Origin: Candidatus Saccharimonadota bacterium
GTDB taxonomy: Bacteria > Bacteroidota > Bacteroidia > Cytophagales > Amoebophilaceae
DNA: 32,000 nt
Direction: 5' to 3'
NCBI RefSeq assembly: GCF_936981045.1
Contig: NZ_OW441264.1
Span: 420,001-452,000, forward strand
The notes beneath the pieces were generated by a model that worked only from the letters and a program-made list of their open reading frames with translations, ran no database searches and had not been told where the DNA came from. The number at the start of each line of letters is the position of its first letter. Position 1 is the first letter of the stretch. Both the position numbers and the translations under genes were made by a program. This document shows positions 1,150-30,785 of the stretch, piece after piece.

Positions 1150-1163
1150 TCCCGAACTGAGGT

Positions 1164-5926: not shown

Positions 5927-7990
5927 TTATACTTCACTTGGTGGCACTTGCGGCACATCTTCAGCAGGTATCTCTTTAGCTTCTTTCGCAAAGCGTTTCC
6001 CTATTAAACGCTCTAAATCTGACTTAAGAATGGTTTCTCTTACCAATAAAGCTTCAGCCAAAAGGGTTAGTTTATCGATCTTTTCTTTAAGCAATCCTTT
6101 CACCCGTTCATAGGCACCATCTATAATTGCTTTTACCTCTTCATCTATAGTATAGGCTGTTTTTTCCGAGTAAGGTTTTGTAAAAGTATAGTCTGCTTGT
6201 TTAGCATTGTGGAAAGAGAGGTGCCCCACTTTAGGGTTCATGCCATAGACTGTAACCATACTGTAGGCCAATTTAGTAGTACGCTCTAAATCATTTAGGG
6301 CACCAGTAGAAATTTTTCCAAAAATAAGTTCCTCAGCTGCTCTTCCTCCCAATGCCATAGCCAATTCGTCTAACAATTGATTTTCCTGATAAACAAACTG
6401 CTCTTTCGGCAAATACTGTGCATAACCCAATACGGCTATACCACGTGGTATAATACTTACTTTCACCAGTGGGTGTGCATGTTCTAAAAACCATCCAGCA
6501 ATCGCATGGCCTGCTTCGTGGTAAGCTATTATTTTTTTCTCTTCTGGAGAGATAAGTTTATTTTTTTTTTCCAATCCACCAATAATTCGATCTATAGCTG
6601 CATGAAAGTCGCTCATGGTTACAAATTTCTTATTTTTTCTAGCTGCTATTAAAGCTGCTTCATTACACATATTAGAGAGATCGGCTCCAGAGAATCCTGG
6701 TGTTTGTTCTGCCAGTTGTTTAATCCGGATGTGTCGTTCTAGCTTTAATCCTTTGCTATGGTAGCGTATAATCTCTTCTCTATCCAATATATCTGGGTTA
6801 TCTATGGTAACCTGTCTATCAAATCTTCCTGGACGCAGCAGGGCAGGATCTAATACCTCTGCTCTATTGGTAGCACCTATCACAATCACACCAGAATTGG
6901 TTGAAAAACCATCCATTTCTACCAAGAGGGAGTTCAAAGTATTTTCACGTTCATCATTCACGCCAGGCATATTGGCCTTACCCCGTGTTCTGCCCACTGC
7001 GTCTATTTCATCGATAAAAATAATACAAGGTGCCTTTTCCTTTGCTTTTTTAAAGAGGTCACGGACACGAGCCGCACCTATGCCCACAAACATTTCCACA
7101 AAGTCTGATCCAGAGAGACAAATAACAGGCACACCTGCTTCCCCAGCTACCGCTTTGGCCAGTAAGGTTTTACCTGTTCCTGGAGGACCTACAAGCAGCA
7201 CACCTTTAGGAATTTTTCCACCAAGCAGGGTAAACTTTTCAGGCATTTTTAAAAAGTCTACCACCTCCTTTACCTCTTCCTTAGCTTCTTTCATGCCAGC
7301 TACATCTTGGAATGTAACTTTTAACTGATTATCTCTATCAAAAATAGTTGCTTTTAATGTATTCATATTAAAAAGCTGTGTGCCGGGGCCTGCCATACCA
7401 TTACCTGGTTTACGAATAAAGAACCAGTAGATAAGGAATAGAGTGAGCAAAAAAGACCAGTTGATAAAACTAGCAGGTTCTGAATGTTCTTCGCAAGTGT
7501 AACCTATTCTAGCTTCAGGGGCCATTTTGGCTTCTATGTCTGCAAATTTTTTATCAAAAATATCGAAATTCGGTATTCGAAACGTGTAGACCAATCCACT
7601 GGCACTTTTCCAGGCACTTCTTCCTGCTAATTCCTTTTGATAACGCTCTTTTTTTAATGCATCCTCTTTAAGGACTACTTCCACTAGGTGTTGATTGGTG
7701 ATTAAAGTAACCGACTTTACCTCCTGGTTTAGCATCATTGATTCAAAACGTTTCTCAGAAATAGCAATCGAACTTTTTTCCTTGCTGTAGTAAAAAAGCA
7801 ACCCCAATATGACTAATATAGCTAATACAAAAATGGACTGAGGAGCATTGTGTTGCACAAATTTTTTTTCTCTTTGTTTCATAATTTGATTTAAATTGAA
7901 TAGCTGTTTTTTTGCTAAGTGAATAGGTAAATTTACAAAAAGGCACTGAAAAAGAACATAAAAAAGAACTAAATAATGGCTTATGGGCAA
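5927..7990 (-). CDS. ftsH: ATP-dependent zinc metalloprotease FtsH
   Basis: The ORF has Walker A (GPPGTGKTLLAKAVAGEAGVP), the AAA second region of homology and the HEAGHA zinc motif. An alternative start is the ATG at 7882 (MKQREKK). Confidence 0.95.
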   Translation of the reverse strand: MPISHYLVLFYVLFQCLFVNLPIHLAKKQLFNLNQIMKQREKKFVQHNAPQSIFVLAILVILGLLFYYSKEKSSIAISEKRFESMMLNQEVKSVTLITNQHLVEVVLKEDALKKERYQKELAGRSAWKSASGLVYTFRIPNFDIFDKKFADIEAKMAPEARIGYTCEEHSEPASFINWSFLLTLFLIYWFFIRKPGNGMAGPGTQLFNMNTLKATIFDRDNQLKVTFQDVAGMKEAKEEVKEVVDFLKMPEKFTLLGGKIPKGVLLVGPPGTGKTLLAKAVAGEAGVPVICLSGSDFVEMFVGIGAARVRDLFKKAKEKAPCIIFIDEIDAVGRTRGKANMPGVNDERENTLNSLLVEMDGFSTNSGVIVIGATNRAEVLDPALLRPGRFDRQVTIDNPDILDREEIIRYHSKGLKLERHIRIKQLAEQTPGFSGADLSNMCNEAALIAARKNKKFVTMSDFHAAIDRIIGGLEKKNKLISPEEKKIIAYHEAGHAIAGWFLEHAHPLVKVSIIPRGIAVLGYAQYLPKEQFVYQENQLLDELAMALGGRAAEELIFGKISTGALNDLERTTKLAYSMVTVYGMNPKVGHLSFHNAKQADYTFTKPYSEKTAYTIDEEVKAIIDGAYERVKGLLKEKIDKLTLLAEALLVRETILKSDLERLIGKRFAKEAKEIPAEDVPQVPPSEV

Positions 7991-8054
7991 AGGGATACCT
8001 TGTACCAGTTTGCGTCTATACCTTTATGTATGATTGGCGTTATGCAGCTTTTTA

Positions 8055-8699
8055 TTATTGTGTTGCCTCCATATATCTACCTTCCACTACTTCCCAGTAA
8101 ATAATTTTCCAAAAAGCTTCTATATAGGCCAAGCGTCTATTTTGGTAAAGAAGGTAATAGGCATGCTCCCATAAATCTAGTCCTAAAATAGGCACACCTT
8201 GTTCTTGAACAGGGGTGGTGTTCATAAGTGGATTATCTTGATTGTTGGTTGTAGAAATAAGCAAACTACCATCTTTCTTAGCTACAGATAGCCAAGCCCA
8301 TCCAGAACCAAAGTGTGCTGCTGCGGCTGCTGTAAAAGCTTCTTTGAATCCTTGAAAGCTTCCAAATGATTTTTCTAATACATGCAATAAGTTTGTTCCA
8401 GGTGCTTGGGCACCATTAGGTTTCAGGCTATCCCAGAAAAATAAATGGTTAAAGTGGCCACCAGCGTTGTTGCGCACAACAGTATGGTAGGCGCTTATAT
8501 CTTTTAGAAGGTGGGTCAATACCGATATTTCGGCTCCTTCTGCGGTTGCTATTGCGGTACCGGCTATAGCCTGATTGAGTTTATCCACATAAGTTTGATG
8601 GTGTTTGGTATGGTGGATCTCCATAGTTTGGGCATCTATGTAGGGTGCTAATCCATTGTAGGCATAAGGCAAGGCGGGAAGTGCAAGAATCATAAGCAT
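8055..8699 (-). CDS. sodA: Superoxide dismutase, Mn-type signature
   Basis: Motifs seen are LPALPYAYNGLAPYIDAQTMEIHHTKHH, GGHFNHLFFW, NQDNPL and DLWEHAYY. Confidence 0.9.
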   Translation of the reverse strand: MLMILALPALPYAYNGLAPYIDAQTMEIHHTKHHQTYVDKLNQAIAGTAIATAEGAEISVLTHLLKDISAYHTVVRNNAGGHFNHLFFWDSLKPNGAQAPGTNLLHVLEKSFGSFQGFKEAFTAAAAAHFGSGWAWLSVAKKDGSLLISTTNNQDNPLMNTTPVQEQGVPILGLDLWEHAYYLLYQNRRLAYIEAFWKIIYWEVVEGRYMEATQ

Positions 8700-8738
8700 T
8701 TACGTTTATAGAATAAAGAATACAATTAGCTTGTTGTG

Positions 8739-9224
8739 CTACAATATAGTGTTTCTTAACTTTTTAAAAAAACAAATCAGCAATTGGTTGCTTTCTTTTG
8801 CTAAAATATCTGGTTGGACTGCTGTTCGTGGGTGCAGCGCAGCTTTAGAAAGGGTTTGATAGCCTCTTTTATGGTCACTAGCGCCAAAAACAAGTCGCTG
8901 TATTTGAGACCAGTAGAGTGCACCACTACACATGATACAGGGTTCTAGGGTAACATATAGGGTACAGTTAAGGAGGTATTTGCTACTGAAATAATTAGCA
9001 GCAGCAGTTATGGCCAATAGTTCTGCATGAGCCGTTGGATCTTTTAGTCGTTCTACTTGGTTATAGGCACGTGCAATAATCTTATGATCCGCTACAATCA
9101 CCGCTCCAACCGGCACCTCTCCTAATTCAGCTGCACGTGTTGCTTCTTGTAACGCTGCTTGCATAAAGAAAGCATCGTCATTGACAGGTTGTATGCGGCT
9201 CATGTAATACGCATTTGATGGCAC
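8739..9224 (-). CDS. tadA: tRNA adenosine(34) deaminase (CDA-fold zinc deaminase)
   Basis: The ORF has the HAE and PCxxC zinc-binding motifs (HAELLAITAA, LEPCIMCSGAL). The likely start is the internal ATG near 9203 (MSRIQP). Confidence 0.85.
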   Translation of the reverse strand: MPSNAYYMSRIQPVNDDAFFMQAALQEATRAAELGEVPVGAVIVADHKIIARAYNQVERLKDPTAHAELLAITAAANYFSSKYLLNCTLYVTLEPCIMCSGALYWSQIQRLVFGASDHKRGYQTLSKAALHPRTAVQPDILAKESNQLLICFFKKLRNTIL

Positions 9225-9496
9225 ATAGTTTAGTAGACTATTTAAGTACGGCTAATTTAGCAAAGTTTAGGCTACACTTACACAAAGTATATTGGAATTG
9301 GCAATATATTTTAGTAATATTTCATTGAAGATCAGCCTATTTAAGAGTTATTACAAGTAGTAGTTGTATGGCATGGTAAAACCCATGCACCAAGCGGTCT
9401 ATTTACCATATAGGTGTGTCCTTCATCTATTGGTATCTTCTCTTTATGGCATGGACCTGCACTACATTAAACTATAATTGAAAATCAATTACGCCT

Positions 9497-9638
9497 ATGG
9501 ATATAAACAAAAACAAATCGATCCGCAAGGGTTTTATATTGTCAAAAACAATATTTCCAGCAGTTGGTGCACTTTTACTAGGCACCCAAGCGGGGTGCAA
9601 TGGACTTGATAAGCATTTGGGTATGATGGAGCTAGGTA
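9497..9638 (+). pseudogene. Possible 5' stump of a lipoprotein gene truncated by IS982 copy B
   Basis: The ATG at 9497 gives MDINKNKSIRKGFILSKTIFPAVGALLLGTQAGCNG, a signal peptide with a lipobox-like AGC. The frame runs straight into the IS terminus at 9639. This call is weak because the stump is only 47 codons. Confidence 0.3.
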
Positions 9639-9744
9639 ACCTGAGTTCGGGATTAGCTTGTTAAAAAATAGCTTTAAAAAGCTCCTTTGTGTTTTAAATT
9701 TGGAGATAAAAAAATACTAACCAGATTATCTAAAGGAGCCAGTT

Positions 9745-9993
9745 ATGAATGTAGAAAAATTAGTTGAAATATATTATGCTGTTAATGAATTTCTCATAAA
9801 GTTTATGCCGTATATGGAAAAACAACTGTTAACCAACTCTAAAAGAAAACCCACTAGAACTTGTTCATTAACTTTGAGTGAAATAATGACTGTTCTTATT
9901 GCCTTTCATGTGATTGGTTTTAGAAATTTTAAGTCTTATTATATTCATTTACAGCAATTTCATTCTAGTAAATTTGGAAAGTTAGTAAGCTAG
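9745..9993 (+). CDS. IS982-family transposase, N-terminal segment (same in-frame TAG at 9991-9993)
   Basis: It differs from the copy A ORF by one residue (D14N). Confidence 0.7.
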   Translation: MNVEKLVEIYYAVNEFLIKFMPYMEKQLLTNSKRKPTRTCSLTLSEIMTVLIAFHVIGFRNFKSYYIHLQQFHSSKFGKLVS

Positions 9994-10032
9994 AATAGAT
10001 TTATAGAACTGATCCAAAGAACGTTAGTTCCC

Positions 10033-10626
10033 TTGTACTGTTTTACACAAAGTTTTTCTAAAACAAAAACAGGTTGTTATTTTATGGATGCAACAGCCAT
10101 CAAGGTTTGCCATATCAAAAGAGCCTATACGCACAGGGTTTTTAAATCGATTGCTACTAAAGGTAAAACCAGCATCGGTTGGTTTTTTGGATTAAAGTTG
10201 CACTTGATAGTCAATGATTTAGGAGAAATTATGAATTTTCAACTGACCACAGGTAAAACTAATGATAGGCTTCCTGTAGAAAATTTATGTAAACACTTGA
10301 TGGGTAAAATGTCTGCCGATAAAGGTTACATAAGCAAAGATTTATTTAAAAAACTGATCGAGAAAGGCGTGGAATTCATTACCCAGATTAGAAAAAATAT
10401 GAAAAATGCTTTTATGCCACTCTGGGATAAACTGATGCTTAGAAAACGATCTATAATTGAAACTATTATAGATCAGCTCAAAAATATTAGCCAGATAGAA
10501 CATTCCAGGCATAGAAGCATACCTAATTTTCTAGTCAATTTGATAACTGGAATTACAGCTTATGCACTAAAAGAGAAAAAACCTTCTATAACTAATATAT
10601 ATATGACTGGTTCACAATACGTCTAA
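10033..10626 (+). CDS. IS982-family DDE transposase, catalytic segment
   Basis: It has the same motifs as copy A. Several amino-acid replacements are present, including F->S next to the DKGY motif (MSADKGY). Confidence 0.8.
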   Translation: MYCFTQSFSKTKTGCYFMDATAIKVCHIKRAYTHRVFKSIATKGKTSIGWFFGLKLHLIVNDLGEIMNFQLTTGKTNDRLPVENLCKHLMGKMSADKGYISKDLFKKLIEKGVEFITQIRKNMKNAFMPLWDKLMLRKRSIIETIIDQLKNISQIEHSRHRSIPNFLVNLITGITAYALKEKKPSITNIYMTGSQYV

Positions 10627-10640
10627 TCCCGAACTGAGGT

Positions 10641-11296
10641 TAGTAGGCTTCTATTTGTCTGAAAGTGAAGGTGCTAACTTCTGGCTAGGTGTACTTAACG
10701 AACTTAAGGAAAGGGGTGTAGAAGATATCCTTATTGTCTGCGTTGATGGCCTAAAAAGCTTCCCTTCAGCCATAAATACCGCTTTTCCTAATATACAAGT
10801 TCAGGTCTGTATAGTACATCAGATACGCAACACACTCAAGTATGTAGCTAGCAAAGATGTAAAATTTTTTTAACTGATTTAAAGCAAATATATCAAGCTT
10901 CAAGTAAGGAAGTTGCTGAACATTATCTATTGGAACTGGAAGAAAAATGGGAAAAAAAGTATCAGATGGTTACCAAATCTTGTCAAAATAATTGGGAGCA
11001 TTTATCTGCTTATTTTAGGTATTCAGGTCCTGTCAAAAGGCTAATTTATACAACCAATCCCATAGAAAGCTTGCAAAGGCAGATTAGACAATTTACTAAG
11101 ACAAAGGGGGCATTTACCAGTATAAATTCCTTGTATAAATTAGTATATTGTGCCATAAAAAAGATGGAAGAAAAGTGGACTATGCCCGTGCGAGAATGGG
11201 CATTAACGATATCTCAGCTCGACATCTTTTTTCCCGGTAGGTTAAAGTTCGAGTTGAGATAGGGCCGTACTGTGACACAGTTCATTGAACACTTCC
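10641..11296 (+). mobile_element. 3' half of an IS256-family element, 5'-truncated by IS982 copy B
   Basis: It ends with GACACAGTTCATTGAACACTTCC at 11274-11296. The reverse complement of that sequence occurs as a solo end at 17405-17427. Confidence 0.8.
10655..11262 (+). pseudogene. IS256-family (mutator-type) transposase, C-terminal half, frameshifted
   Basis: The first ORF reads FWLGVLNELKERGVEDILIVCVDGLKSFPSAINTAFPNIQVQVCIVHQIRN and the second reads RLIYTTNPIESLQRQIRQFTKTKGAF. The two ORFs (10655-10873 and 10930-11262) are separated by a frameshift at an A/T run. Confidence 0.8.
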
Positions 11297-11363
11297 TAGA
11301 ATAAATCAGTCCAGTATAGTCCGGTATATCAACTCAATAGATGTTATTTCCGTTTACTTTTAT

Positions 11364-14351
11364 ATGTTTCCATATCATTTATTATGCATCTTTTTTAAGC
11401 ACAAGAAGCAAAAATATTTTATTGCTATTGTTCATTTTTTATTTTTTTTGTTACCTAGTTTTTTTCTCCACGCTAAGGAAAAAATAAGAACGCCTCATTT
11501 TAGTATTTTGTTTGATAAAAGTACCACTCACTCAGCACAGCGTATAGCCAACACGTTAGAAACAATATATCAACCTGTCTCTAAAACATTGGGCGTATAT
11601 CCTAGTCCTATTCGCTTAGTAGTCAATAATGGATCTACTCTGCTGAATGGATATTTTAAACATCTTCCACGCCATATATCTTTTTATACCTTACACCCTT
11701 CTGATCCCTATTTTATTGGCAATGCTAATTGGTTCAATATGTTGTGCATACATGAGTTTAGGCATGCAGTACAACATAGTATTGAATACTATAGTACGCC
11801 TCGTTGGCTTAGACTCTTATACTTTGGATGCAATCTTATTACCCCATGCGGTGTTCCCAAATTTTTCAAGGAAGGTGATGCGGTTGGTATAGAAACAGCA
11901 CTTTCAAAAGCTGGTCGAGGCCGTTTACCTGAGTGGGAAAAGATATACAGGGTCAACCTTCTAGAACGTGGTACAGCTAGTTTCGACAGACAATTGTTTG
12001 GCTCTTTGCAACATGAAATGCCATCTGAATACCACATAGGGTATTATTTTACTACACATATCCGAAGAAAATATGGTGCAGATTCCATCAAATCTATTTT
12101 TGAAAAAAGCGTTCGCAGTATGCCTTTCTTTGGATTTTACCATGCCCTAAAAAAGGTTACCAAAAAGTCGATACTAAAGGTATATGAGGATATGAACCAA
12201 GAGCTGTTGCTTAGTTGGCAAAAGCAGCTAGAGGGGTTAAAGATCACGCCTGGAACTCAGCTTACCATTAAAAAACCCAATGATAGCTTTGATTATATTA
12301 ATCCATTTATTGACGCATCAGGTAACCTGATGGCTTGGAAAACAGGTATAGGTTTGCGTCCTCAACTGGTACAGGTTAGGACCTCCCTTACTGAACCCGC
12401 TACATCGAAAAAAATATTTTCATCTTTGCGAAAAGACAAGACTATATTTTACTTTATAAAGGATAATAGCCTCCCACCCGCTGCTTTTGCTATAGGAGAA
12501 GGGTGTGCAGCCTGGCTAGAAACGTGTAGCCATCCTTGGCAAGAGAATAAGCAAACCAATCGTTTACAATATTACGACTTTAAACAGAAAAAAAGGCGCA
12601 CCCTTATTTCAAGCAGTAGGTATACTGCATTAGCCATGAGTCCTAATACCCATCAACTGGTTGCCGTAACAACTGACAAAACCGGTAAACATCTTCTGGT
12701 TGTTTTAGAAATGAAGTCTGGTAAAGTGGTCAAAAAAATAGATAACCCCGATGAGGGTTATTATTTAACGCCCAGTTGGTCTGGTGAAGACTATGTAATA
12801 GTAGTAAAAACCAAGAATCAACAAAATAGCATTTTGCGGATCAATGTGGCTACCAGTAAAGCAGAAATACTCTTGCCTTACACCTACGAGCATAGAAGCT
12901 ACCCTAGGATATATAAAGACTATTTGCTCTATAACAGCTCGTACAATGGTATTGATAATATTTATGCGATGCATTTGCCTACAAAAGCTTGTTTTCAAGT
13001 TACCTCAAGAAAATATGGGGCTTATTTGGGAATGGTGTATCCTATAAACCATCAACTTGTTTTTAATGATTATACTAAAAATGGTATGGATATAGTTGTG
13101 ATGCCTTTTGATCCTCTTTTATGGACACCTCTAGGGGCAGTAAAGGATAGGTCTGTAGGGTATTATGAGCCATTGGTTGTACAAGAACAGAACAGTGATA
13201 TTTTGACAAAAGTTCCCAACCATCTATATCCCCTGACTAAATACTGTTTTGCAAAAGATAATCTTGCTTTTATTGGAGCAAACTTAAAAAAAACCAATTG
13301 GGATCATGGTGGGCTTGAGACAAGTCTCGAACCTTTTGCATTAGTAAACCTAGAGAATATCCTGAAAGCCACTCCCTATTGGTACGAAAATTGGGATATA
13401 TCTAATGATATATCTAATAAGGTTAGGAATCCTAGATATATATACGAATATATGACCAGAAAAGTAGGATTAAAAGTAAGCTATACAACCTGGTATCCAA
13501 TCTTGGAAGTAGATATTAAAGCTGCTAGGTATAGATGGGAAAGTATGAAAACAGCAGTTATCTCTAGGGATAGTGCTCTATACCTGTGTGAACCAAGTGA
13601 AATACCCTACTGGAAACCAAAATTAAGTTTAGGCATAAAATTGCCTTATTATTTCACTTTAGGCAGTTCTTCGGGGGAAGCATATTTAGAGGCCACAATA
13701 CGTCTAAGCCCATCTGATCGAAATAAAAAAAAAGATCATACTGAAAAATATGCCTTTAGTATAACCAATTCCTCAACTAAAAGCAAAAGGGATATTCATC
13801 CACCCTGGTGCCAAAAACTTCGTATAGGTTTTGAGTATGCAAAAGAGAGTCCTAGGTTATTAAAAACATGGTATGAAAATAGGCTTTATTTTAATATTGA
13901 ATTTTACATCCCAGGGATTGTCGATCACCACTATTGTAGTTTAAGTCCAACTATTGAATGGTTTAAAAAACCCGGTCATAAATTGGATTGGACACCATGT
14001 ATTAACTTAGTGTATGGTTTTCCTTGGGGCTATCCAGAGTGTGGTATACCGCTTATTTGGTTTTTAGAGAAGATATGGATCGAAGGTTATTATAGTTATA
14101 AGGTTGAACCTATAAAAATACATCTGACAGAGTCCATAGGTAAAGTTGCCTATATACTTTCAGATAATTGCCAAGACACTATCACTATAGGTACAAAACT
14201 TTATTTTTTAAGTAGATTTCTAGCTAGTAAAAACATACCTGCTGTGCAAGTCTTGCTAGATTTTCCTTTTTTTAAAAAGCAGGATAATGTTTGGAAGTGC
14301 CAGTTTCCATTACCTAAACTAAGTTTCGGGATATTGCATGTAAATGATTGA
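11364..14351 (+). CDS. Large (995 aa) putative secreted or envelope protein with an N-terminal HEXXH metallopeptidase-like module and beta-propeller-like repeats
   Basis: This is an uninterrupted 2988-nt ORF. The N-terminus is hydrophobic (FIAIVHFLFFLLPSFFLHA). HEFRH lies at 11751-11765 and a downstream FKEGDAVGIE gives a gluzincin-like spacing. The central region has a TolB-like repeat flavour. The function is not established. Confidence 0.8.
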   Translation: MFPYHLLCIFFKHKKQKYFIAIVHFLFFLLPSFFLHAKEKIRTPHFSILFDKSTTHSAQRIANTLETIYQPVSKTLGVYPSPIRLVVNNGSTLLNGYFKHLPRHISFYTLHPSDPYFIGNANWFNMLCIHEFRHAVQHSIEYYSTPRWLRLLYFGCNLITPCGVPKFFKEGDAVGIETALSKAGRGRLPEWEKIYRVNLLERGTASFDRQLFGSLQHEMPSEYHIGYYFTTHIRRKYGADSIKSIFEKSVRSMPFFGFYHALKKVTKKSILKVYEDMNQELLLSWQKQLEGLKITPGTQLTIKKPNDSFDYINPFIDASGNLMAWKTGIGLRPQLVQVRTSLTEPATSKKIFSSLRKDKTIFYFIKDNSLPPAAFAIGEGCAAWLETCSHPWQENKQTNRLQYYDFKQKKRRTLISSSRYTALAMSPNTHQLVAVTTDKTGKHLLVVLEMKSGKVVKKIDNPDEGYYLTPSWSGEDYVIVVKTKNQQNSILRINVATSKAEILLPYTYEHRSYPRIYKDYLLYNSSYNGIDNIYAMHLPTKACFQVTSRKYGAYLGMVYPINHQLVFNDYTKNGMDIVVMPFDPLLWTPLGAVKDRSVGYYEPLVVQEQNSDILTKVPNHLYPLTKYCFAKDNLAFIGANLKKTNWDHGGLETSLEPFALVNLENILKATPYWYENWDISNDISNKVRNPRYIYEYMTRKVGLKVSYTTWYPILEVDIKAARYRWESMKTAVISRDSALYLCEPSEIPYWKPKLSLGIKLPYYFTLGSSSGEAYLEATIRLSPSDRNKKKDHTEKYAFSITNSSTKSKRDIHPPWCQKLRIGFEYAKESPRLLKTWYENRLYFNIEFYIPGIVDHHYCSLSPTIEWFKKPGHKLDWTPCINLVYGFPWGYPECGIPLIWFLEKIWIEGYYSYKVEPIKIHLTESIGKVAYILSDNCQDTITIGTKLYFLSRFLASKNIPAVQVLLDFPFFKKQDNVWKCQFPLPKLSFGILHVND

Positions 14352-14564: not shown

Positions 14565-16037
14565 ATGTTAAAAGAAGAACAAATTATAGGCAGCTTAGTC
14601 CTAGATCATTTAGGATTAATTTCCAGTGTAATAGATAAAATTGGATCGATCCAAAAAATAGATGAATGCCTTCCAGTCTCACAAGAAAAAGGAGCTAAAG
14701 CAACGATGGGAGAGCGGGTCACTGCCATGATACTCAATGGGCTAGGATTTATGGACAATCGACTTTATATGTTTCCAGAATTCTTATCTAATAAACCTGT
14801 AGATAAGTTATTTAGGCCTGATATTACAGCAGAAATGTTTAATGATGACGCTTTAGGGCGTTGTCTAGACGCTATTGCGGAATATAGTCTAACCAAACTT
14901 TTTTCCCAAATCGCATTCCAGATTGGTACACAATTTAATCTATTAGGTAAAACAGCACGTTTAGATACTACTACCTTAACTGTATTTGGTGATTATGAGC
15001 AATCGGCTGCAAATAATCCTGCTTCACCAGGTGCAGATGATTTTAAGATTACCTATGGTTATTCCAAGGAAGGCAGACCGAACTTAAAACAGATGGTTCT
15101 CAACTTGGCTACCACAGGTGCAGGTGCCTTTCTTATCTGGATGGAAGCACATAATGGAAACGCTTCTGATAAGATCATTCTGCAACATGCAGCTAAACGT
15201 ATGAAAGAATTTTGTAAGCAACTCAAGGCTGCCCCTGCCTTTCTATTTGTAGGCGATAGCGCTATGTATGAAAAGTGTGTAGCGGATAATCCAGCTATCC
15301 ATTGGCTTTCAAAAGTTCCTGCTAAGCTTAATCAAGCTAAAGCCTACTTACAAACACCTAATGAGGCCATTACTTGGCAAGTAATAGAGAACGGATGTAA
15401 GATTACTTCCTCTAAACAGTTGTATAAGGGCCTAGAGCAGCGTTGGTTATTGGTATACTCAGCACAGGCTTATGCCTCAGAAATAGCTATCCTAGATCGA
15501 CATATTGAACAAGAATACCTTAACACACTTAAAAATATTGATCGATTTGAAAATCAGTTGTTCTTTTGGAAAGCTGATGGGGAAAAAGCACTTGCTTTAC
15601 TCAGTAAACCATTGAGATACTATGATTTAGCCGTCACACAAGTGGAAGAAGTTACCCAATATAGTGGACAAGGAAGACCTAAAAAGGATACCAAACCTAC
15701 TGTCATAGGTTATAAATTACGTACGAGACTAGTTGCTAATGAGTGCAGAATAGCTGTATTGCGTTCCCAACAGGGGCGATTTATTTTGGCTACTAATCAG
15801 CTAGATAACAAGGCTTTAAGTGATCAGGAAATGTTCCAGGAGGATAAGGATCAGCATAAAACAGAACAAGCGTTTCGATTTATTAAAGGTAATGCCTTCG
15901 AGGTATCCTCTGTCTTTCTAAAAAAAGAGAGTCGTATACAAGCCCTGATGATGATTATAACGCTATGTTTAATGGTATATAACGTAAGTTCGGGATTTAT
16001 TTTACTGATTTACAACAATTTAATATCAATTATTTAG
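14565..16037 (+). pseudogene. IS1634-family DDE transposase; the C-terminus is disrupted by MITE 3 (the last 18 codons of the ORF are MITE sequence)
   Basis: Motifs seen are GERVTAMILNGLGF, ARLDTTTLTVFG, YGYSKEGRPNLKQ, LFVGDSAMY and TEQAFRFIKG. Homology stops at 15981. Confidence 0.8.
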
Positions 16038-18791: not shown

Positions 18792-19385
18792 TTAGACGTA
18801 TTGTGAACCAGTCATATATATATTAGTTATAGAAGGTTTTTTCTCTTTTAGTGCATAAGCTGTAATTCCAGCTATCAAATTGACTAGAAAATTAGGTATG
18901 CTTCTATTCCTGGAATGTTCTATCTGGCTAATATTTTTGAGCTGATCTATAATAGTTTCAATTATAGATCGTTTTCTAAGCATCAGTTTATCCCAAAGTG
19001 GCATAAAAGCATTTTTCATATTTTTTCTGATTTGGGTAATGAGTTCCACGCCTTTCTCGATCAGTTTTTCAAATAAATCTTTGCTTATGTAACCTTTATC
19101 GGCAAACATTTTACCCATGAAGTGTTTACATAAATTTTCTACAGGAAGCCTATCATTAGTTTTACCTGTGGTCAGTTGAAAATTCATAATTTCTCCTAAA
19201 TCATTGACTATCAAGTGCAACTTTAATCCAAAAAACCAACCGATGCTGGTTTTACCTTTAGTAGCAATCGATTTAAAAACCCTGTGCGTATAGGCTCTTT
19301 TGATATGGCAAACCTTGATGGCTGTTGCATCCATAAAATAACAATCTGTTTTTGTCTTAGCAAGACTTTGTGTAAAACAGTACAA
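18792..19385 (-). CDS. IS982-family DDE transposase, catalytic segment
   Basis: This 197-aa ORF is co-linear with copies A, B and D. Confidence 0.8.
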   Translation of the reverse strand: MYCFTQSLAKTKTDCYFMDATAIKVCHIKRAYTHRVFKSIATKGKTSIGWFFGLKLHLIVNDLGEIMNFQLTTGKTNDRLPVENLCKHFMGKMFADKGYISKDLFEKLIEKGVELITQIRKNMKNAFMPLWDKLMLRKRSIIETIIDQLKNISQIEHSRNRSIPNFLVNLIAGITAYALKEKKPSITNIYMTGSQYV

Positions 19386-20974: not shown

Positions 20975-21568
20975 TTGTACTGTTTTACACAAAGTCTTTC
21001 TAAAACAAAAACAGATTGTTATTTTGTGGATGCAACAGCCATCAAGGTTTGCCATATCAAAAGAGCCTATACGCACAGGGTTTTTAAATCGATTGCTACT
21101 AAAGGTAAAACCAGCATCGGTTGGTTTTTTGGATTAAAGTTGCACTTGATAGTCAATGATTTAGGAGAAATTATGAATTTTCAACTGACCACAGGTAAAA
21201 CTAATGATAGGCTTCCTGTAGAAAATTTATGTAAACACTTCATGGGTAAAATGTTTGCCGATAAAGGTTACATAAGCAAAGATTTATTTGAAAAACTGAT
21301 CGAGAAAGGCGTGGAACTCATTACCCAGATCAGAAAAAATATGAAAAATGCTTTTATGCCACTCTGGGATAAACTGATGCTTAGAAAACGATCTATAATT
21401 GAAACTATTATAGATCATCTCAAAAATATTAGCCAGATAGAACATTCCAGGCATAGAAGCATACCTAATTTTCTAGTCAATTTGATAGCTGGAATTACAG
21501 CTTATGCACTAAAAGAGAAAAAACCTTCTATAACTAATATATATATGACTGGTTCACAATACGTCTAA
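20975..21568 (+). CDS. IS982-family DDE transposase, catalytic segment
   Basis: This 197-aa ORF is co-linear with the other copies and has a few replacements (for example FVD for FMD, DHLKN for DQLKN). Confidence 0.8.
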   Translation: MYCFTQSLSKTKTDCYFVDATAIKVCHIKRAYTHRVFKSIATKGKTSIGWFFGLKLHLIVNDLGEIMNFQLTTGKTNDRLPVENLCKHFMGKMFADKGYISKDLFEKLIEKGVELITQIRKNMKNAFMPLWDKLMLRKRSIIETIIDHLKNISQIEHSRHRSIPNFLVNLIAGITAYALKEKKPSITNIYMTGSQYV

Positions 21569-21620
21569 TCCCGAACTGAGGTTTTAAGTATTTTTTTTGC
21601 GTTATTTAACGCTTTTTTTT

Positions 21621-23175
21621 ATGGCCTGCTTTAATATGCCCCTGTTTATAGTGGGAGCTTTTTTGGTATTAACCTTGGTGGCAGGTATTTATTTTAGTAG
21701 CAAAGCAACCACCTTTCGAGAGTATGCAGTAGGGCATAAACAATTTGCTACGGCTACTTTAGTGGTTACGGTATTGGCTGCATATTATGGTGCAGGAGGG
21801 TCGATTCGTAATGTACAATATGTCTATAAACTTGGTCTTTTTTGGATCATTCTTGGTCTGTTTGTGAATAGTTTCAGCATATGGCTCTTTAGTCGATTGA
21901 TGTTACGTATGGGGCCATTTATGCAAAACCTTTCTATTGCAGAGACGATGGGTAATGTCTATGGCAAGTACCCAAGGATTATTACAGCTCTGGTTTGTAT
22001 TGGTCAGTCTATTGTTGGCATTACTATGCAAATTATCGCAATGGTCCAAGCCATTAGCATGTGTGTAGATCTAGATTTGTTTTATGCCCAAATGGTCACC
22101 ATTTTTGCTGCCTTAATCTTTATTTTCTATTCTATTTTTGGAGGTGTGCATACAGTTACCATTACACATATATTGCAGTTTTTGATCTTTACTATAATTA
22201 TTCCATTTTTAGCTTGTTTTGTGCTAAAAAAAACAGGTAAATCTGTTATAGAAGTGGTTTCTTTACTACAAACGCAAGAAAAATTTCAGTTTAGTAGTCT
22301 ATGCCATTTTGATACTAATCTAGTACGTATGATTACAATGTGTTTATGTATTATGGTTCCTGATATAGGGTCATCTGCAATTATGCAAAGGGTCTATATG
22401 TCTTCTGAAGCTAATCAAGCAAAAGAGGTCTTTATTATATGTCAGTTTGTTTAGTTTTTTCATTACCGGTTTTATAGTTCTAATGGGTCTATTTGTTTTT
22501 GTAGATGGTGGAGCAGCCTTACCCATCGAGTCTATTTGGAATCATATAATGACTAATATTTCACCTGTTTTTAGGGGGGTGGTTTGTAGTAGTTTATTAG
22601 CTATGGCAATGTCTACAGCTGACTCTTGCTTAAACGCTTGTTCCGTTATAGTTAGTTATGATATTTTGGCAAGCCTACAAAAGGAAAACAAAATTCCTGA
22701 TGCGCATCAACTTAACATAGCTAGATGGGCCACCCTAGTAGTGGGCTTATACAGTATGTTTTTGGCTTTTTATTGCAAGGATCTCTTGGAATTGTTGCTG
22801 CTAGGTTTTGCTTTTTCTCTTCCAATAATCACTGCTCCAGCTTTGTTAGCTATTTTTGGCTCGAGGTACTTCCCGTACAGCTTTAATTGGCATGGCTACC
22901 GGTATACTATCCATATTAGCTTGGAACCAATGGGTGCAACCGGTAACAGAGATAGATGGGTCTTTTATTTGTATGTTAGCCAATGGTTTGGCTATGATGA
23001 CTGCCCACTATCTACTGAAACAGCCGAAAATTGCAGGTTGGGTGAGTCCGGATTACCCGTTTAAACAAATGCAACAAGCGCAAGCGCGCGGAACAAAAAG
23101 AAGCCATTAAAAATGGTTGGGCCAATAGAAAAAGTACTTTGAACAAGCTGATAACCAGTGATACTGCCTACTTTT
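21621..23175 (+). pseudogene. Decayed, 3'-truncated paralog of the symporter-like domain of the downstream 1194-aa gene
   Basis: Three ORF pieces (21597-22454, 22447-23064, 22856-23110) plus a further shifted stretch are co-linear with aa 1 to ~510 of 23291..26875. There are at least three frame disruptions, including a 7-nt deletion near 23090. Homology ends near 23165. Confidence 0.8.
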
Positions 23176-23290
23176 TGATCAAGCAAAAATTAGCTATGCA
23201 CTACCTTTCTTTTTTTTGATTTTTATCTAAAAATTCATACCTTATAAGAAGGCGGTGCTACCGCTATAATATTTTTTAACTGTTTCCTTT

Positions 23291-26200
23291 ATGATCTGCT
23301 TGGATGTGCCTCTATTTATGGTGTCGGCTTTTTTGGTATTAACCTTGGTGGTAGGTATTTATTTTAGTAGAAAAAAAACCACCTTTCGAGAATATGCGGT
23401 AGGGAATAAACAGTTTGCTACGGCTACCTTGGTGGCTACCGTGTTGGCTACTTGGTATGAAGGGGGTGGGTTGGTACGTAATGTAGAGTGTATTTATGAC
23501 CTTGGCTTGTGGTTTATAGGCGTTTTGCTTTTAGTTCCTTTTGGTATGTGGACTATTAGCAAGTTATCCTTACGTATGGGCCCATTTATGCAGCACCTTT
23601 CTATAGCAGAGACGATGGGTAGTATCTATGGTAAATATCCAAAATTTATTACTGTTTTAGTTGGCATTTGTCGTAGCATCATTGTAATTACTTCTCAAAT
23701 CATCATAATGTCCCAGGCTATTAGCATGTATGTGACCTTAGTTAACCCCTATGTAATACCTGTTTTTTCTACCTTACTTCTTATTTTTTATGCTACCTTT
23801 GGGGGTATTCGTGCCGTTACCTTTACAGATATATTGCAATTTGTAACCTTTTCTATTATTATTCCTCTTCTGGCTTGGTTTATGTTTCTAAAAGTAGGCA
23901 AACCAGTTGCTGCAATTGTTCCTATGCTACAGATCCACACTAAGTTTCAAATTAGTAACCTATTCCTTTGTAATACCCAACTAGCCAGTATAGTACTACT
24001 GTTGCTAGCTGATATACCGAGTAATATAGTAGATCCCGCTCTTATGCAGCGGGTATATATGGCTTCTAGTCCCATTCAGGCTCAAAAGGTTTTTTCGTAT
24101 GCTACTACGTTTGCCATTATTATTCAAGTTTTTATAGTTTTAATTGGTCTATTTACTTTTATAGGAGCACCAGATTTGCTGAAAGAAAGAATTTGGGATT
24201 ATATAATCGCCCATATCCCCCCTCTTTTTAAAGGATTTTTGGCGATTAGTTTACTAGCTATGGCGATGTCTACAGCTGATTCTTGTTTAAATGCTTCTGC
24301 TGTTATGGTCGGTCATGATATCGCGAAAAGCCTAAAAAAGCAAGAGGAGATTGATGATGTAGCTCAACTTAAGATAGCCAGGTGGACCACACTAACGGTA
24401 GGGCTATTGGCTATGATGGTAACTTTTAAGTGTAGAGATCTGCTAAGATTAATGTATTGGTCCCTTAACTGCAAGGTGCCTATACTAGCTGCTCCCTTTA
24501 TTTTAGCTGTTTTGGGTTTTCGGGGTACTGCCCGAACGGCTTTAGTAGGTATGACTACAGGCGTACTTACTATTTTAGCCTGGAATAAATGGGTTGAGCC
24601 TTCAACAAGTATAGATGGTTCTTTTATCGCTATGGTAGCCAATGGCCTAGCGATGATGGCTGCTCACTATTTCTTAAAACAACCGGAAGATGCTGGGTGG
24701 GTTGGTCCAGATTATGAGTTTCAACAAATGCAACAAGCGCAAGCGCGCAAGAGAGCGGAACAAAAAGAAACCATTAAAAATGCTTGGGCCAATAGAAAAA
24801 CCATATTGGCTAAGTTAGTGCCCAGCCATACTACGATGATATATGTAGGATTCTATACTACCATCACTAGTTTGTTGGCTTATTCTATAGTGCGTATTAC
24901 GCATCATGGCTTTTGGCTTATACTTCAACTCTTTGTAGCAGCTTATTTTTTAGGTTATCCATTGCTCTATGCTATCTCGAAAAAAATAAGAGCGATTCCA
25001 AGCTGGTTTATTGGCCTATGTTGGCTAGTATGGTTAGCGGTTTATTTTCCTTTAAATCTGGTTGGGCACTGGTGGCATCTGGTGGATCGAATTTTTACCG
25101 CATCCTTATCTTTGACCCATTGTGCTGTAATCTTATGGCTGTTGCCGCTCTATCTGGGTATAGGGGTTGTAGCCGTTACTGCATTAGTAGCTATTTATCC
25201 TATTGTTGGTGGATTGTCTTCCCCAATATTATCTTCGCTATTCCCACTATTTATAGCCAGTCTACTGGTATTTTCGATTATTATTTCACTTAGGGCCAAC
25301 CTAGGTGATTATATAACGCAAGTTCTTTACCTAAAAAATCAAGAAAAGATCAGAGACTCCCAACGCATAAAAGCCTTCCTGTATGATGCAGCTATAGCGC
25401 CCGCTACTACGGTTGATAAGGCCAAAGGTTATGGTTCTATTTTAGCGCAAGTGATTCGTAAAATTGAGGAATCTATCTCTTTTTTAGATAACGATACACC
25501 TCTTTATAAGCAAGATTTTCAGAGTATTATCAATAAGCTCTATGAATGGGTAGCCTATTTCAATAGAAGTGCAAAAGCCAAAAAACATGCATTGCTACAG
25601 CCTGCTAAAATTACTTTCGATAAGCTGATCCGTAAGGTGGAAGTGGCTTTGTCCCAAGAGGTCACTGATCCGCCTAGGCTACTGGTAGAAAAAATAAAAG
25701 ATCCTAACGGAGCGCCATCTTCCTATATTGTATGCGATATCAACCAGGTCGTCTATGTATTGGTTCAGAGTGTTTTGTGGGTTGGTAAGCTAGAAGGCGC
25801 CCATGCACCTGTTGTGCGCATACAACTGCATCCTACTGCTTTACAGTTTAAGCAAGCAGATCCTATTGACGGTAGCCATCCTGTATACTTGCTTTTCCAA
25901 GCTACCGCTCTGGTAGTAAGTCAGGCTACTACTGCTGCTGAGGTGCTGCCCAAAGTGAAAGCACTCTATGATGATGAGATGGATGCTATGGACCCTAAAG
26001 GGCAGCAGGAAGGGGCACCATCCATAGACCTTCAGCGGGAAACCATATCTACTATTGTTGGGGCCCACTATGGCTATTTGGAAGTCCCTAGTGACCAAAA
26101 GAGACTCACTATGCTACTGGTACTGCCTAATGATGTCACGCAGATACTTAATAAAATGACTGCTGGACTACCAATAGATTGCCTAATCTCTAAAGGCCCT

Positions 26201-26875
26201 GTTACCCCTAAGGAGCAAGCAGATTCCATGATGGCATTAATGCATTTCCATGATTATGTTTGCCAATCCTCTCATGAAGATGATCCTATTGATATAAAAA
26301 CAATTTCTGGTTTGCTTTTATTGTTGCGGAAACATTTTGGCTTTAAACGGCATGCTTCGGGCCAGTTGTTTTATGTGCGGGCGGTAGGGATTGCTGAATT
26401 AGTGGTAGAATGGGTTTTTCACTCTCCTAAAGTAATTTATGCTACTTTGCTCTATGAGTTGGTACGTCATACCTGTTTACCGCTTTCTTATGTCAAGAAA
26501 CATTATAATTTAGGTGTTTATGCTTTTGTATTGAATGTGGTAAAAATAGATAAACGGAAAGAATTAGATCATCTTTCTTTATTGCATGTTCAGAACCGAT
26601 TGGAAGCAGCGATTAAAGAAGAGCATGTACAGCTTTCTGTGCTCTTTATCAAACTAGCCGAGCGGATTTATGACCTACGCCATGCATCAGGTTATCTTCA
26701 TCTAACAGAAGTGCACCATATGGCGCAAGAAACCCTGGCCATAGATGTGCAGATAGCCAACACATACTTAGGACCAGAAATAGGAGTAGCATTAGAAGAA
26801 GCAGCTAAACAGGCGCTAGAAATTTGTGAAGATGCCAGTAAAGCTAAAGATACAGAAAAGGATAAAGATAGTTAG
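23291..26875 (+). CDS. Multidomain membrane protein: SSF (sodium:solute symporter)-like domain, a second TM block, a possibly degenerate histidine-kinase-like region, and a degenerate RelA/SpoT-type HD domain
   Basis: This is an intact 1194-codon ORF. The N-terminal ~480 aa have a multi-TM SSF-like pattern (FREYAVGNKQF, LLAMAMSTADSCLNA). A hydrophobic block covers aa ~515-668. The C-terminal aa ~1003-1172 align by eye to the SpoT/RelA HD domain (ATLLYELVRHT vs AALLHDVIEDT; FIKLAERIYDLR vs LIKLADRxHNMR). Confidence 0.8.
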   Translation: MICLDVPLFMVSAFLVLTLVVGIYFSRKKTTFREYAVGNKQFATATLVATVLATWYEGGGLVRNVECIYDLGLWFIGVLLLVPFGMWTISKLSLRMGPFMQHLSIAETMGSIYGKYPKFITVLVGICRSIIVITSQIIIMSQAISMYVTLVNPYVIPVFSTLLLIFYATFGGIRAVTFTDILQFVTFSIIIPLLAWFMFLKVGKPVAAIVPMLQIHTKFQISNLFLCNTQLASIVLLLLADIPSNIVDPALMQRVYMASSPIQAQKVFSYATTFAIIIQVFIVLIGLFTFIGAPDLLKERIWDYIIAHIPPLFKGFLAISLLAMAMSTADSCLNASAVMVGHDIAKSLKKQEEIDDVAQLKIARWTTLTVGLLAMMVTFKCRDLLRLMYWSLNCKVPILAAPFILAVLGFRGTARTALVGMTTGVLTILAWNKWVEPSTSIDGSFIAMVANGLAMMAAHYFLKQPEDAGWVGPDYEFQQMQQAQARKRAEQKETIKNAWANRKTILAKLVPSHTTMIYVGFYTTITSLLAYSIVRITHHGFWLILQLFVAAYFLGYPLLYAISKKIRAIPSWFIGLCWLVWLAVYFPLNLVGHWWHLVDRIFTASLSLTHCAVILWLLPLYLGIGVVAVTALVAIYPIVGGLSSPILSSLFPLFIASLLVFSIIISLRANLGDYITQVLYLKNQEKIRDSQRIKAFLYDAAIAPATTVDKAKGYGSILAQVIRKIEESISFLDNDTPLYKQDFQSIINKLYEWVAYFNRSAKAKKHALLQPAKITFDKLIRKVEVALSQEVTDPPRLLVEKIKDPNGAPSSYIVCDINQVVYVLVQSVLWVGKLEGAHAPVVRIQLHPTALQFKQADPIDGSHPVYLLFQATALVVSQATTAAEVLPKVKALYDDEMDAMDPKGQQEGAPSIDLQRETISTIVGAHYGYLEVPSDQKRLTMLLVLPNDVTQILNKMTAGLPIDCLISKGPVTPKEQADSMMALMHFHDYVCQSSHEDDPIDIKTISGLLLLLRKHFGFKRHASGQLFYVRAVGIAELVVEWVFHSPKVIYATLLYELVRHTCLPLSYVKKHYNLGVYAFVLNVVKIDKRKELDHLSLLHVQNRLEAAIKEEHVQLSVLFIKLAERIYDLRHASGYLHLTEVHHMAQETLAIDVQIANTYLGPEIGVALEEAAKQALEICEDASKAKDTEKDKDS

Positions 26876-30088: not shown

Positions 30089-30763
30089 GGTTCTGTCGCG
30101 TTTATTCTAAAAAATCATTTTAGTATCTGTAGTTAAAAAAGTAGTTATTATGTTTAATATTTCGCCCAAATTATTACCTTATTTTAAGGGTTATTGTTCT
30201 TCAGCAGAAGTCATCCTGTTATTTGTCTAGATGAAGTGTCGTTTTTCCTTGAGCTATAGAGATTTGGAAGATATGATGCGTATGAGAGGCGCAAGAGTTG
30301 ATCGTTCTACGCTACAAAGATGGGTTATTAGTTTGTTCCTCTTAATAGATGAAGCAGTAAGCAAAAGAAAACGACCAGTTGGTGGTAGTTGGAGAATGGA
30401 TGAGACCTATATTAAACTAAACGGGAAGTGGATCTATTTATATAGAGCAGTAGATCGTTATGGTGATACAGTTGACTTTTTTCTATCTGAGCATAGAGAC
30501 AAGTCTGCAGCTTTTTCTTTTTTTCGTAAGGCGATCACAGAAAATAATATTCCTAAGAAAGTAGTAATTGACAAAAGCGGTAGTAATAAAGCTGCCCTTG
30601 ATACGATCAATACAGAACTTGATCAAGATCATACTATTCAAATATTTCAAAACAAATACTTGAATAATAGAGTTGAACAAGATCATAGGTTTATCAAAAA
30701 ACGGCTAAAACCTATGCTTAGTTTTAAGTGTTTTAAGTCTGCAGCCATTGCACGCCGGCACAG
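30089..30763 (+). mobile_element. IS6-family element (copy 3): left IR and about three quarters of the transposase gene, interrupted by a group II intron
   Basis: The IR GGTTCTGTCGCG starts at 30089. The upstream leader is identical to copy 2. IS6 homology stops at ...GCAGCCATTGCA (about 30749). Confidence 0.8.
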
Positions 30764-30785
30764 GTGTGCAACAAATGGGGTGTAA
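30231..30785 (+). pseudogene. IS6-family transposase, interrupted before the C-terminal GIE..KGQ region
   Basis: Motifs seen are RFSLSYRDLEDMMRMRGARVD, SWRMDETYIKLNGKWIYLYRAVDRYGDTVDFFLSEHRD and NNRVEQDHRFIKKRLKPMLSFK. The last ~10 codons of the ORF are intron or junction sequence. Confidence 0.8.

Follow-up and report, generated by a model that had tools for sequence, protein, structure and literature searches.

What does a solute transporter do with an alarmone-hydrolase domain whose active site has been entirely replaced? The question is raised by one gene in a 32,000-nucleotide (nt) stretch of contig NZ_OW441264.1 (positions 420,001 to 452,000 of the forward strand; assembly GCF_936981045.1, deposited as Candidatus Saccharimonadota bacterium and placed by GTDB in the Amoebophilaceae), hereafter called the window, in whose coordinates all positions are given. 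The gene, from a Cardinium-like insect symbiont, encodes a sodium/solute-symporter family (SSF) domain, six additional transmembrane (TM) helices, a histidine-kinase-like core and an HD domain of the SpoT/Rel (RSH) type in a single polypeptide. We lean towards reading this protein as a membrane solute-sensing 'transceptor', the HD output of which was ancestrally alarmone hydrolysis and is now a conserved pseudoenzyme in Candidatus Cardinium. The four-module architecture and the status of the HD domain as a pseudoenzyme stand on far firmer ground than the kind of signal involved and the way in which it runs.

The reading frame stays open over 1194 codons with no internal stop, in agreement with the initial annotation, and about 100 full-length homologues of 1150-1200 amino acids (aa), among the protein-search matches listed, are colinear with its product, which rules out an artefactual fusion. 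Translation may instead begin at the GTG at 23306, since the closest homologue, P0001, starts MPLFIV... and aligns to aa 6-7. A full-length AlphaFold2 model built from an 83-sequence family alignment reached a mean predicted local distance difference test score (pLDDT) of 79 and a predicted TM-score (pTM) of 0.66, and aa 671-1001 (331 residues) were modelled separately with a pLDDT of 75. Searched against the PDB with Foldseek, the full-length model gave three classes of match: SSF transporters, histidine-kinase cytoplasmic cores and the catalytic region of T. thermophilus Rel. Pfam, AlphaFold/Foldseek and profile searches between them recover all four of the modules originally proposed, and the features of the gene are as follows.

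23291..26875, + strand: whole gene, a fusion of SSF, six-TM, pseudo-histidine-kinase and pseudo-HD modules (intact frame, colinear homologues, AlphaFold2 model)
23291..24700, + strand: SSF (SLC5/LeuT-fold) Na+/solute-symporter domain, aa 1-470 (Pfam, TIGR00813, Foldseek)
24713..24811, + strand: cytoplasmic basic/amphipathic linker helix, aa 475-507 (model helices 475-500 and 502-507, non-hydrophobic)
24827..25306, + strand: additional membrane block with six predicted TM helices, aa 513-672 (hydropathy, model)
25307..25594, + strand: helical hairpin resembling the dimerisation and histidine phosphotransfer (DHp) domain, aa 673-768, continuous with the last TM helix (Foldseek, profile)
25595..26164, + strand: alpha/beta domain resembling the catalytic and ATP-binding (CA) domain, with the Bergerat/GHKL fold, aa 769-958 (order of secondary structure, Foldseek)
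aa 959-1001: linker between the CA-like and HD domains
26294..26770, + strand: RSH (SpoT/Rel-type) HD domain, catalytically degenerate, aa 1002-1160 (Pfam HD_4, profile, Foldseek)
26771..26872, + strand: C-terminal helix and acidic/lysine-rich tail, aa 1161-1194 (model helix 1162-1193, low conservation)

The output end of the protein carries the central observation. Pfam HD_4 (PF13328) matches aa 1014-1157 above its cut-off (E 3.7e-8, 33.7 bits against 27.2). A profile of the clade finds B. subtilis Rel (8acu, 3e-11), Rel-Seq (1vj7, 2e-9), A. baumannii SpoT (7qps, 1.5e-8) and E. coli RelA (5kps, 3e-3) in the PDB, and Foldseek aligns T. thermophilus Rel (6s2u) at 8.8e-5 over 194 columns with a root-mean-square deviation (rmsd) of 3.8 Å. 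Profiles are needed for this comparison, as a single-sequence phmmer search of aa 681-1194 against the PDB gave marginal matches (best SpoT 7qps, E 0.066). These matches support the degenerate SpoT/RelA-type HD domain that had been assigned by eye to aa ~1003-1172.

All nine of the catalytic, metal-binding or phosphate-binding positions are replaced in the window protein. It has H1021, R1030, Y1055, E1056, R1059, H1060, E1124, Y1127 and D1128 where relatives and solved Rel structures have R H H D E D D H N. The changes HP to RA, HD to YE and D..HN to E..YD are exactly those read from the sequence at the outset, and the segments ATLLYELVRHT (26441-26473) and IKLAERIYDLR (26648-26680) lie where they had been placed. 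The motifs H.SGQL..RA, LLY[EDG]LVR[HRY]T and KLAERLYDL of the Cardinium clade stand against RKSGEPFYLHP, LLHDTVEDT and KLADRLHNMRT in relatives. Although overall identity between the paralogues of the clade is as low as 30-77%, they hardly vary in the substituted motifs LLY.L and KLAERLYDL. By its motifs the window protein is predicted to lack Mn2+-dependent hydrolysis of (p)ppGpp, which relatives whose HD domain is intact are predicted to carry out.

The degenerate domain is under strong constraint. Ratios of nonsynonymous to synonymous substitution (dN/dS; NG86), which are approximate, were calculated for three pairs (window against P0001, window against P0041, and P0001 against P0041), and the domains rank in the same order in all three. 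The HD domain has the lowest ratio of the eight segments (0.097, 0.097 and 0.085) and the highest mean identity among Cardinium paralogues (0.68). The SSF domain follows in identity (0.56; dN/dS 0.20-0.29), then the DHp-like hairpin (0.47; 0.12-0.32), the CA-like domain (0.42; 0.36-0.45) and the extra TM block (0.36; 0.17-0.29), with a dN/dS of 0.20-0.28 for the whole gene. Because the HD domain combines the lowest dN/dS and the highest paralogue identity with invariant replacements, it is, judged from sequence, a conserved pseudoenzyme and not a decaying remnant.

The loss can also be placed on a tree. In a neighbour-joining tree made from non-HD columns only (aa 1-1000), every sequence with the pattern H-R-Y-x-x-x-E-Y-D falls into one clade, nested among intact lineages and made up of all the Cardinium sequences and a few unnamed Amoebophilaceae proteins. 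Most members outside Cardinium keep the canonical HD active site. The degenerate state is a derived one that arose once, in the ancestor of the Cardinium clade, and was then frozen. Further, some or most of the HD catalytic residues are gone, each time in a different, idiosyncratic pattern and often beside intact sisters, in no fewer than eight other tips or small groups dispersed over the tree (P0162, P0166, P0172, P0193, P0196, P0202, P0205, P0214, P0221, P0233, P0235, P0236, P0244 and P0259); these independent losses mean that hydrolase chemistry has been lost repeatedly in the family.

At the input end, the transporter is recognised by Pfam SSF (PF00474, aa 70-424, E 2.9e-14, 53.2 bits against a cut-off of 22.8) and by TIGR00813 (aa 35-424, E 8.8e-18, under its own 184-bit trusted cut-off), and NCBIfam returns a generic sodium/solute symporter superfamily match far under any equivalog cut-off. 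The best structural match of this part is SiaT (5nva; E 2.9e-14, target-normalised TM-score 0.84, rmsd 3.4 Å), followed by CHT1, SGLT1/2, NIS, SMCT1 and vSGLT. The SSF-like domain initially drawn at aa 1 to ~480 is therefore well founded, with PF00474 above its cut-off and solved SSF transporters as Foldseek matches. Two motifs are near-invariant in the 83 sequences, namely ATxxAT..GG in TM1 (A49-T50..A53-T54..G58 in the window protein) and AMxMSTADSxLN in TM8 (A323-M-x-M-S327-T328-A-D-S331). These residues may correspond to the Na2 Na+ site of PutP and vSGLT. The additional hydrophobic block described at aa ~515-668 is likewise confirmed, by hydropathy peaks at aa 541-664 and by six model helices (513-534, 540-566, 571-596, 600-617, 620-641 and 644/651 onwards). 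It has no match in the Pfam scan and, with 36% identity, is the least conserved domain among Cardinium paralogues.

Could the protein simply be a nutrient importer, which takes up a host metabolite through its SSF domain and whose 700-aa C-terminal extension is a structural, oligomerisation or stability appendage without any part in signalling or ligand binding? Authors working on symbionts regard these proteins as transporters of nutrients (PMC5698495, PMC8831229), and many importers are to be expected in Cardinium, which lacks most biosynthetic pathways (PMC3486910). Moreover, the SSF core motifs are conserved while both enzymatic modules are dead. We nevertheless consider this explanation unlikely, as a mere appendage would not be expected to be the most constrained part of the protein (dN/dS ~0.09 for the dead HD domain), to hold its substituted active-site residues invariant across such divergent paralogues, or to remain colinear with the other modules through dozens of duplications.

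A second alternative takes the constraint on the HD domain at face value and supposes a neofunctionalised enzyme. The domain would have been rebuilt around a Tyr/Glu/Asp site, either binding a hard metal or metal-free, and would, under control of the transporter, hydrolyse or bind another phosphorylated metabolite, possibly a nucleotide derived from the host. The replacements are indeed conservative and coordinated (H to Y, D to E, H to Y, N to D, and an R/H swap) before being frozen, selection on the domain is very strong, and the HD_4 family includes enzymes with other substrates, such as Mesh1 on NADPH (PMC9765508). However, the D of the HD motif, which supplies the second metal ligand, may be E, D, G or A within the clade, the first metal-binding His has become Arg, and the catalytic ED pair has become R[H/R/Y]. 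No HD-superfamily enzyme is known to work without the H...HD...D metal site, and we regard a rebuilt enzyme as decidedly doubtful.

Between the membrane and the HD domain lies a module that the initial annotation had read by eye as a degenerate DHp and GHKL core at aa ~690-950. With the model of aa 671-1001, the top 50 PDB matches in Foldseek are all histidine-kinase DHp-CA structures (E 5e-8 to 1e-5), led by CckA (5idj, 5e-8) and followed by ZraS, RetS, HK853, CusS and CpxA, with alignments over ~240-290 columns of the 331-residue model; the full-length model also matches the kinase cores of ZraS, RetS and CckA. Profile evidence is weaker, the middle domain of distant relatives finding ThkA (3a0r, 6e-4), DivL (0.02), ZraS (0.027) and AdeS in the PDB. 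The sequence-family check that had been suggested thus came out differently from the fold search: beyond SSF and HD_4, Pfam gave no significant match in the window protein, and none to HisKA or HATPase_c at E<=1, whereas only kinases appear among the top 50 structural matches.

What made these folds kinases is missing. In alignments of 83 and of 16 sequences there is no invariant or near-invariant phospho-acceptor His at aa 670-770 and no conserved Gly motif corresponding to the G1 (DxGxG) or G2 (GxGxG) box, and only D816, H926, G928 and P946 are invariant or near-invariant in the CA-like domain. The position of the N-box ATP-binding Asn (of QNAIEA) is hydrophobic in the alignment with ThkA. 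An AHYG motif presumably occupies the place of the kinase 'HGG', going by the HATPase_c consensus. The by-eye reading of a core without its phospho-acceptor His and Gly boxes is thereby substantiated. The kinase motifs are missing throughout the family, even from those members in which the HD domain looks active. The module is predicted to be no longer able to bind ATP or accept phosphate.

A functional sensor histidine kinase is effectively ruled out by the missing His, N-box Asn, G1 and G2 boxes. That the protein is nonetheless an SLC5 sensor kinase of the CbrA/CrbS type, phosphorylating a response regulator, is accordingly very improbable: the order of an SSF N-terminus and a DHp-CA fold would suit it, but, beyond the motif losses, neither HisKA nor HATPase_c is detected and no response regulator is found among the neighbours in the window.

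If neither module is catalytic in Cardinium, what was the ancestral machine? One indication comes from gene neighbourhoods. A scan of family loci for synthetase motifs showed that, in three divergent Amoebophilaceae/Cytophagales lineages, one family member is preceded at a distance of 50-140 bp by a RelA_SpoT synthetase gene of the same orientation. The synthetases are ~272-305 aa long and consist of an HD tail and a SYNTH domain (PF04607), without TGS or ACT (e.g. P0263 and P0277). In the first lineage (L076) the synthetase at 21-773 precedes a family member at 895-4269 with an intact HD domain; in the second (L080, also L081 and L082) a synthetase at 3036-3872 precedes an HD-intact member at 4012-7473; in the third (L064) a synthetase at 17-934 precedes a member at 982-4485 with a partly degenerate HD domain. 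Across the three lineages the synthetases are 30-55% identical to one another and the fusion proteins 28-38%. An nth-like (HhH-GPD) gene comes next, on the opposite strand, in L076 and L080. The two genes look like a conserved synthetase/hydrolase pair, and this pairing is good contextual evidence that the ancestral substrate was (p)ppGpp or a close analogue. That most relatives have a canonical active site further strengthens the link to alarmones and sharpens the reading of the Cardinium domain as a pseudoenzyme.

The family is larger than a single locus would suggest. A protein search returned 305 matches, of which the first ~100 of the 120 listed are Candidatus Cardinium proteins of 1150-1200 aa with a precomputed PF00474+PF13328 architecture, annotated as 'sodium:solute symporter family transporter' or 'HD domain-containing protein'; the best of them is only 77% identical to the window protein. 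The Cardinium of Philonthus spinipes has at least eight full-length copies on its 1.09-Mb chromosome, and a 1.19-Mb C. hertigii contig carries at least 15. When a profile of the kinase-like domain was run against 1.84 billion cluster representatives (50% identity), 367 clusters matched, 230 of them at E<=1e-10. Among the best 150 of the 367, all have the four-module architecture or appear to be fragments of it, and every full-length protein (1110-1245 aa) has the kinase-like domain at residues ~670-990. The fusion set out in the initial annotation is thus real, but the emphasis needs correcting in that it is no one-off, the window gene being one of many paralogues.

A pattern and tblastn scan over 185,579 GTDB species genomes gave 74 loci, which lie in metagenome-assembled genomes (MAGs) labelled Amoebophilaceae, uncultured Cytophagales or Bacteroidota bacterium, and also in Candidatus Amoebophilus sp. 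36-38 and a 1.45-Mb 'Roseivirga sp.' MAG. Several of these genomes are complete chromosomes of 0.9-1.45 Mb with five to eight or more copies. One further match, on a 1.5-kb Phycisphaerales contig, is probably misbinned. In the searches made, the family is confined to Amoebophilaceae-type, mostly small (0.9-1.45 Mb) Bacteroidota genomes. Among the neighbouring genes there are ATP/ADP translocases (TLC) and one for a large protein with ankyrin repeats, both of which are hallmarks of host-associated bacteria.

Some of these loci are worth describing in themselves. In a 1.06-Mb Cytophagales MAG (L001) a stand-alone 480-aa SSF gene (6475-7917) lies directly upstream of the fusion gene (8001-11456), and on a JGI contig (L002) two fusion paralogues (1-823 and 8001-11342) are ~7 kb apart, near an 823-aa ankyrin-repeat protein. 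The complete 1.446-Mb 'Roseivirga sp. RCC90_49c' MAG (CP136537.1) has at least six copies (L006, L007, L046, L049, L055 and L057). Its small size, together with a gene family otherwise found only in MAGs labelled Amoebophilaceae, Cytophagales or Bacteroidota, suggests a wrong genus label or a reduced symbiont.

Parts of this family have been met before under other names. Mann et al. (2017) counted 12 'putative sodium-solute symporters' in Cardinium cEper1, all expressed and two of them among the 22 most highly expressed genes (PMC5698495). Selberherr et al. (2022) reported 19 in A. asiaticus with life-stage-dependent expression and a function 'currently unknown' (PMC8831229). From the side of alarmone metabolism, Atkinson et al. 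(2011) described a Rel[HS] and an 'expansion' of 14 'rickSpo[H]' in Candidatus Amoebophilus asiaticus (PMC3153485), and Brown et al. (2018) gave the count for Amoebophilus as '18 homologs of spoT ... /sodium glucose cotransporter' and that for three Cardinium strains as 7, 3 and 2 (PMC6232779). We infer that the published 'symporters' are the present family from organism, numbers and annotation, with only P0033 tied directly to cEper1; the rickSpo proteins of A. asiaticus are very probably members too, on the basis of copy numbers and taxon. The family has thus already been catalogued under three unrelated labels. In the literature searched, no description was found of the four-module layout, the dead kinase core, the dead HD domain of Cardinium or the synthetase neighbourhood, and no paper combines 'solute symporter', 'ppGpp' and 'HD domain'. 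The supposed novelty of an SSF-SpoT HD fusion therefore survives in part: the fusion was in databases and literature under other names, but neither a description of its layout nor functional work on it was found there.

Comparison with known systems shows what is shared and what is not. Like CbrA and CrbS (MxtR), the window protein has an N-terminal SSF/SLC5 input followed by a cytoplasmic DHp-CA core in the same polypeptide. Unlike them, it has no phospho-acceptor His or ATP boxes in that core, no STAC or PAS domain detected by Pfam, six extra TM helices, and an RSH HD domain as output in place of phosphotransfer to a response regulator. DivL and RetS, both among the matches, resemble it in using a DHp-CA fold as a signalling scaffold without normal kinase chemistry, but they act within two-component networks, whereas the window module joins a transporter to an HD domain. 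Yeast Gap1 and Pho84 are nutrient 'transceptors', and the proposed likeness is that the conformational cycle of a transporter is read as a signal; their signalling partner is a separate protein, whereas the candidate outputs here are fused to the transporter.

On the output side, the HD domain shares its fold and sequence family (HD_4) with Rel/SpoT, but the window protein lacks synthetase, TGS and ACT domains, and a kinase-like module ties its HD domain to a transporter in the membrane. By contrast, SpoT, Rel, Mesh1 and other small alarmone hydrolases (SAHs), the (p)ppGpp hydrolases that have been studied well, are soluble and are regulated by ribosomes, acyl carrier protein (ACP) or small partners. 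As in the pseudo-hydrolase domain of E. coli RelA, catalytic residues have been lost and the domain kept; the pattern of loss here (R H H D E D D H N to H R Y x R x E Y D) belongs to this clade alone and is strictly conserved. The rickSpo SAHs were defined as HD-only, whereas the window protein has 1194 aa and four modules, and the text of the census on rickSpo makes no mention of a transmembrane or symporter part (PMC3153485).

How might such a protein work? We propose that it sits in the inner membrane, where the SSF domain would bind or transport a host-derived solute, and that the extra TM bundle, followed by the kinase-derived helices, would relay the conformational cycle of this domain to the HD domain. 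The kinase-derived DHp and CA parts would most likely serve as a dimeric transmission device. The ancestral machine was most likely a solute-gated alarmone hydrolase, in which the presence of a nutrient would lead to degradation of (p)ppGpp; this rests on the intact HD domain of most relatives and on the synthetase next to one paralogue. The Cardinium clade would then, in its common ancestor, have exchanged every residue for catalysis, metal binding and phosphate binding, once only; the new residues would have been frozen, and the family would have grown to 8-15 copies per genome. The HD domain of the window protein would most probably be a non-catalytic regulatory module, analogous to the pseudo-hydrolase of RelA, which binds a ligand or partner or gates the transporter.

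The transceptor model can be carried further, tentatively and as a possibility that we would not yet expect to hold in full. Intracellular Bacteroidota of the Amoebophilaceae type may use 5-19 transporter-coupled RSH modules as their main nutrient sensors. Each module would report on its own host solute by turning a (p)ppGpp hydrolase at the membrane on or off, in opposition to a small alarmone synthetase encoded beside one of the copies. The HD domain of Cardinium would in that case be a non-catalytic module that binds alarmones or nucleotides and gates transport or signals to another partner.

Several points weigh against the transceptor model. Neither a synthetase nor another partner gene is present in the window. 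Alarmone sensing by the dead HD domain of Cardinium is speculative: a search with small alarmone synthetase (SAS)-type synthetases of Amoebophilaceae gave no Cardinium-named protein among the best 120 of 3133 matches, the query P0278 reached Rel of free-living Cytophagales (Ekhidna-like) instead, and no clear statement on Rel, SpoT or SAS in Cardinium was found in the literature searched. The replacing residues in the HD domain are mostly oxygen donors (Tyr, Glu, Glu, Tyr, Asp) and invariant, and could form a new catalytic or metal site. The dN/dS ratios are approximate, with dS of 0.6-1.3 overall and up to 2.2 in single domains, near saturation. The model confidence is low in the DHp-like region (pLDDT 35-65). 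Finally, no functional or biochemical study of any family member was found in the literature searched.

The surroundings of the gene hint at a history of duplication and transposition. Directly upstream lies a broken paralogue, itself preceded by an insertion sequence (IS) transposase.

21621..23216, + strand: frameshifted, truncated paralogue (pseudogene), equivalent to aa 1-522 (tblastn)

The pseudogene consists of four segments in three frames with 45-73% identity to the intact protein (tblastn); its pieces are the open reading frames (ORFs) 21597-22454, 22447-23064 and 22856-23110, and one fragment matches Pfam SSF. This arrangement suggests a tandem duplication followed by decay of the upstream copy. 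The other neighbours in the window are IS elements and transposases, an Fe-S assembly protein and FtsK. That the gene is itself an annotation or assembly artefact, or a decaying pseudogene of fused remnants, deserves almost no credence: the region is IS-rich and the broken paralogue adjoins it, but 1194 open codons, ~100 homologues with the same layout and an overall dN/dS of 0.20-0.28 argue against it.

The window is very IS-rich. A 594-nt ORF occurs four times (556-1149, +; 10033-10626, +; 18792-19385, -; 20975-21568, +) at 97.8-98.8% identity and encodes a 197-aa DDE transposase (Pfam DDE_Tnp_1_3, checked on the copy at 20975-21568). Further ORFs related to IS elements are 2898-3563 (rve), 10930-11262 (Mutator fragment), 14565-16037 (DUF4277) and 30231-30785 (DDE_Tnp_IS240). 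A YhcG-type PDDEXK nuclease domain is split between 1201-1524 and 1768-2070 (+), covering profile positions 2-76 and 78-157, and is probably a disrupted gene. A 995-aa ORF at 11364-14351 (+) has no Pfam match at E<=0.001. Between the pseudogene and the intact gene, a GC-rich hairpin (GGCGGTGCTACCGCT) followed by ATAATATTTT is found at 23251-23265 (+), 26 nt 5' of the ATG, and might terminate transcription of the pseudogene before it or have a regulatory function. Such hairpin sites number seven in the region against 3.5 in shuffled sequence, a modest excess. A sigma-70 promoter scan around the gene, of a kind unsuited to Bacteroidota promoters, found 10 sites against 11.9 expected from shuffled sequence.

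For these bacteria the family is a considerable investment, with 8-15 genes of 3.6 kb taking up a substantial share of a ~1-Mb genome. If the published 'symporters' are its members, it includes some of the most highly expressed genes of Cardinium and stage-regulated genes of Amoebophilus. The family is labelled only 'symporter' with substrates unassigned, and its dead modules and extreme conservation make ligand binding and regulation targets of study in addition to transport. One ancient, fixed loss and at least eight independent degenerations provide a natural series of active and inactive HD domains for following the evolution of pseudoenzymes. If the proposed mechanism is true, the family would supply the first alarmone hydrolase gated by a transporter as well as pseudo-RSH regulators of a new class, and a hydrolase hard-wired to a solute transporter by way of a kinase-derived module would be a direct route from nutrient availability to the stringent response.

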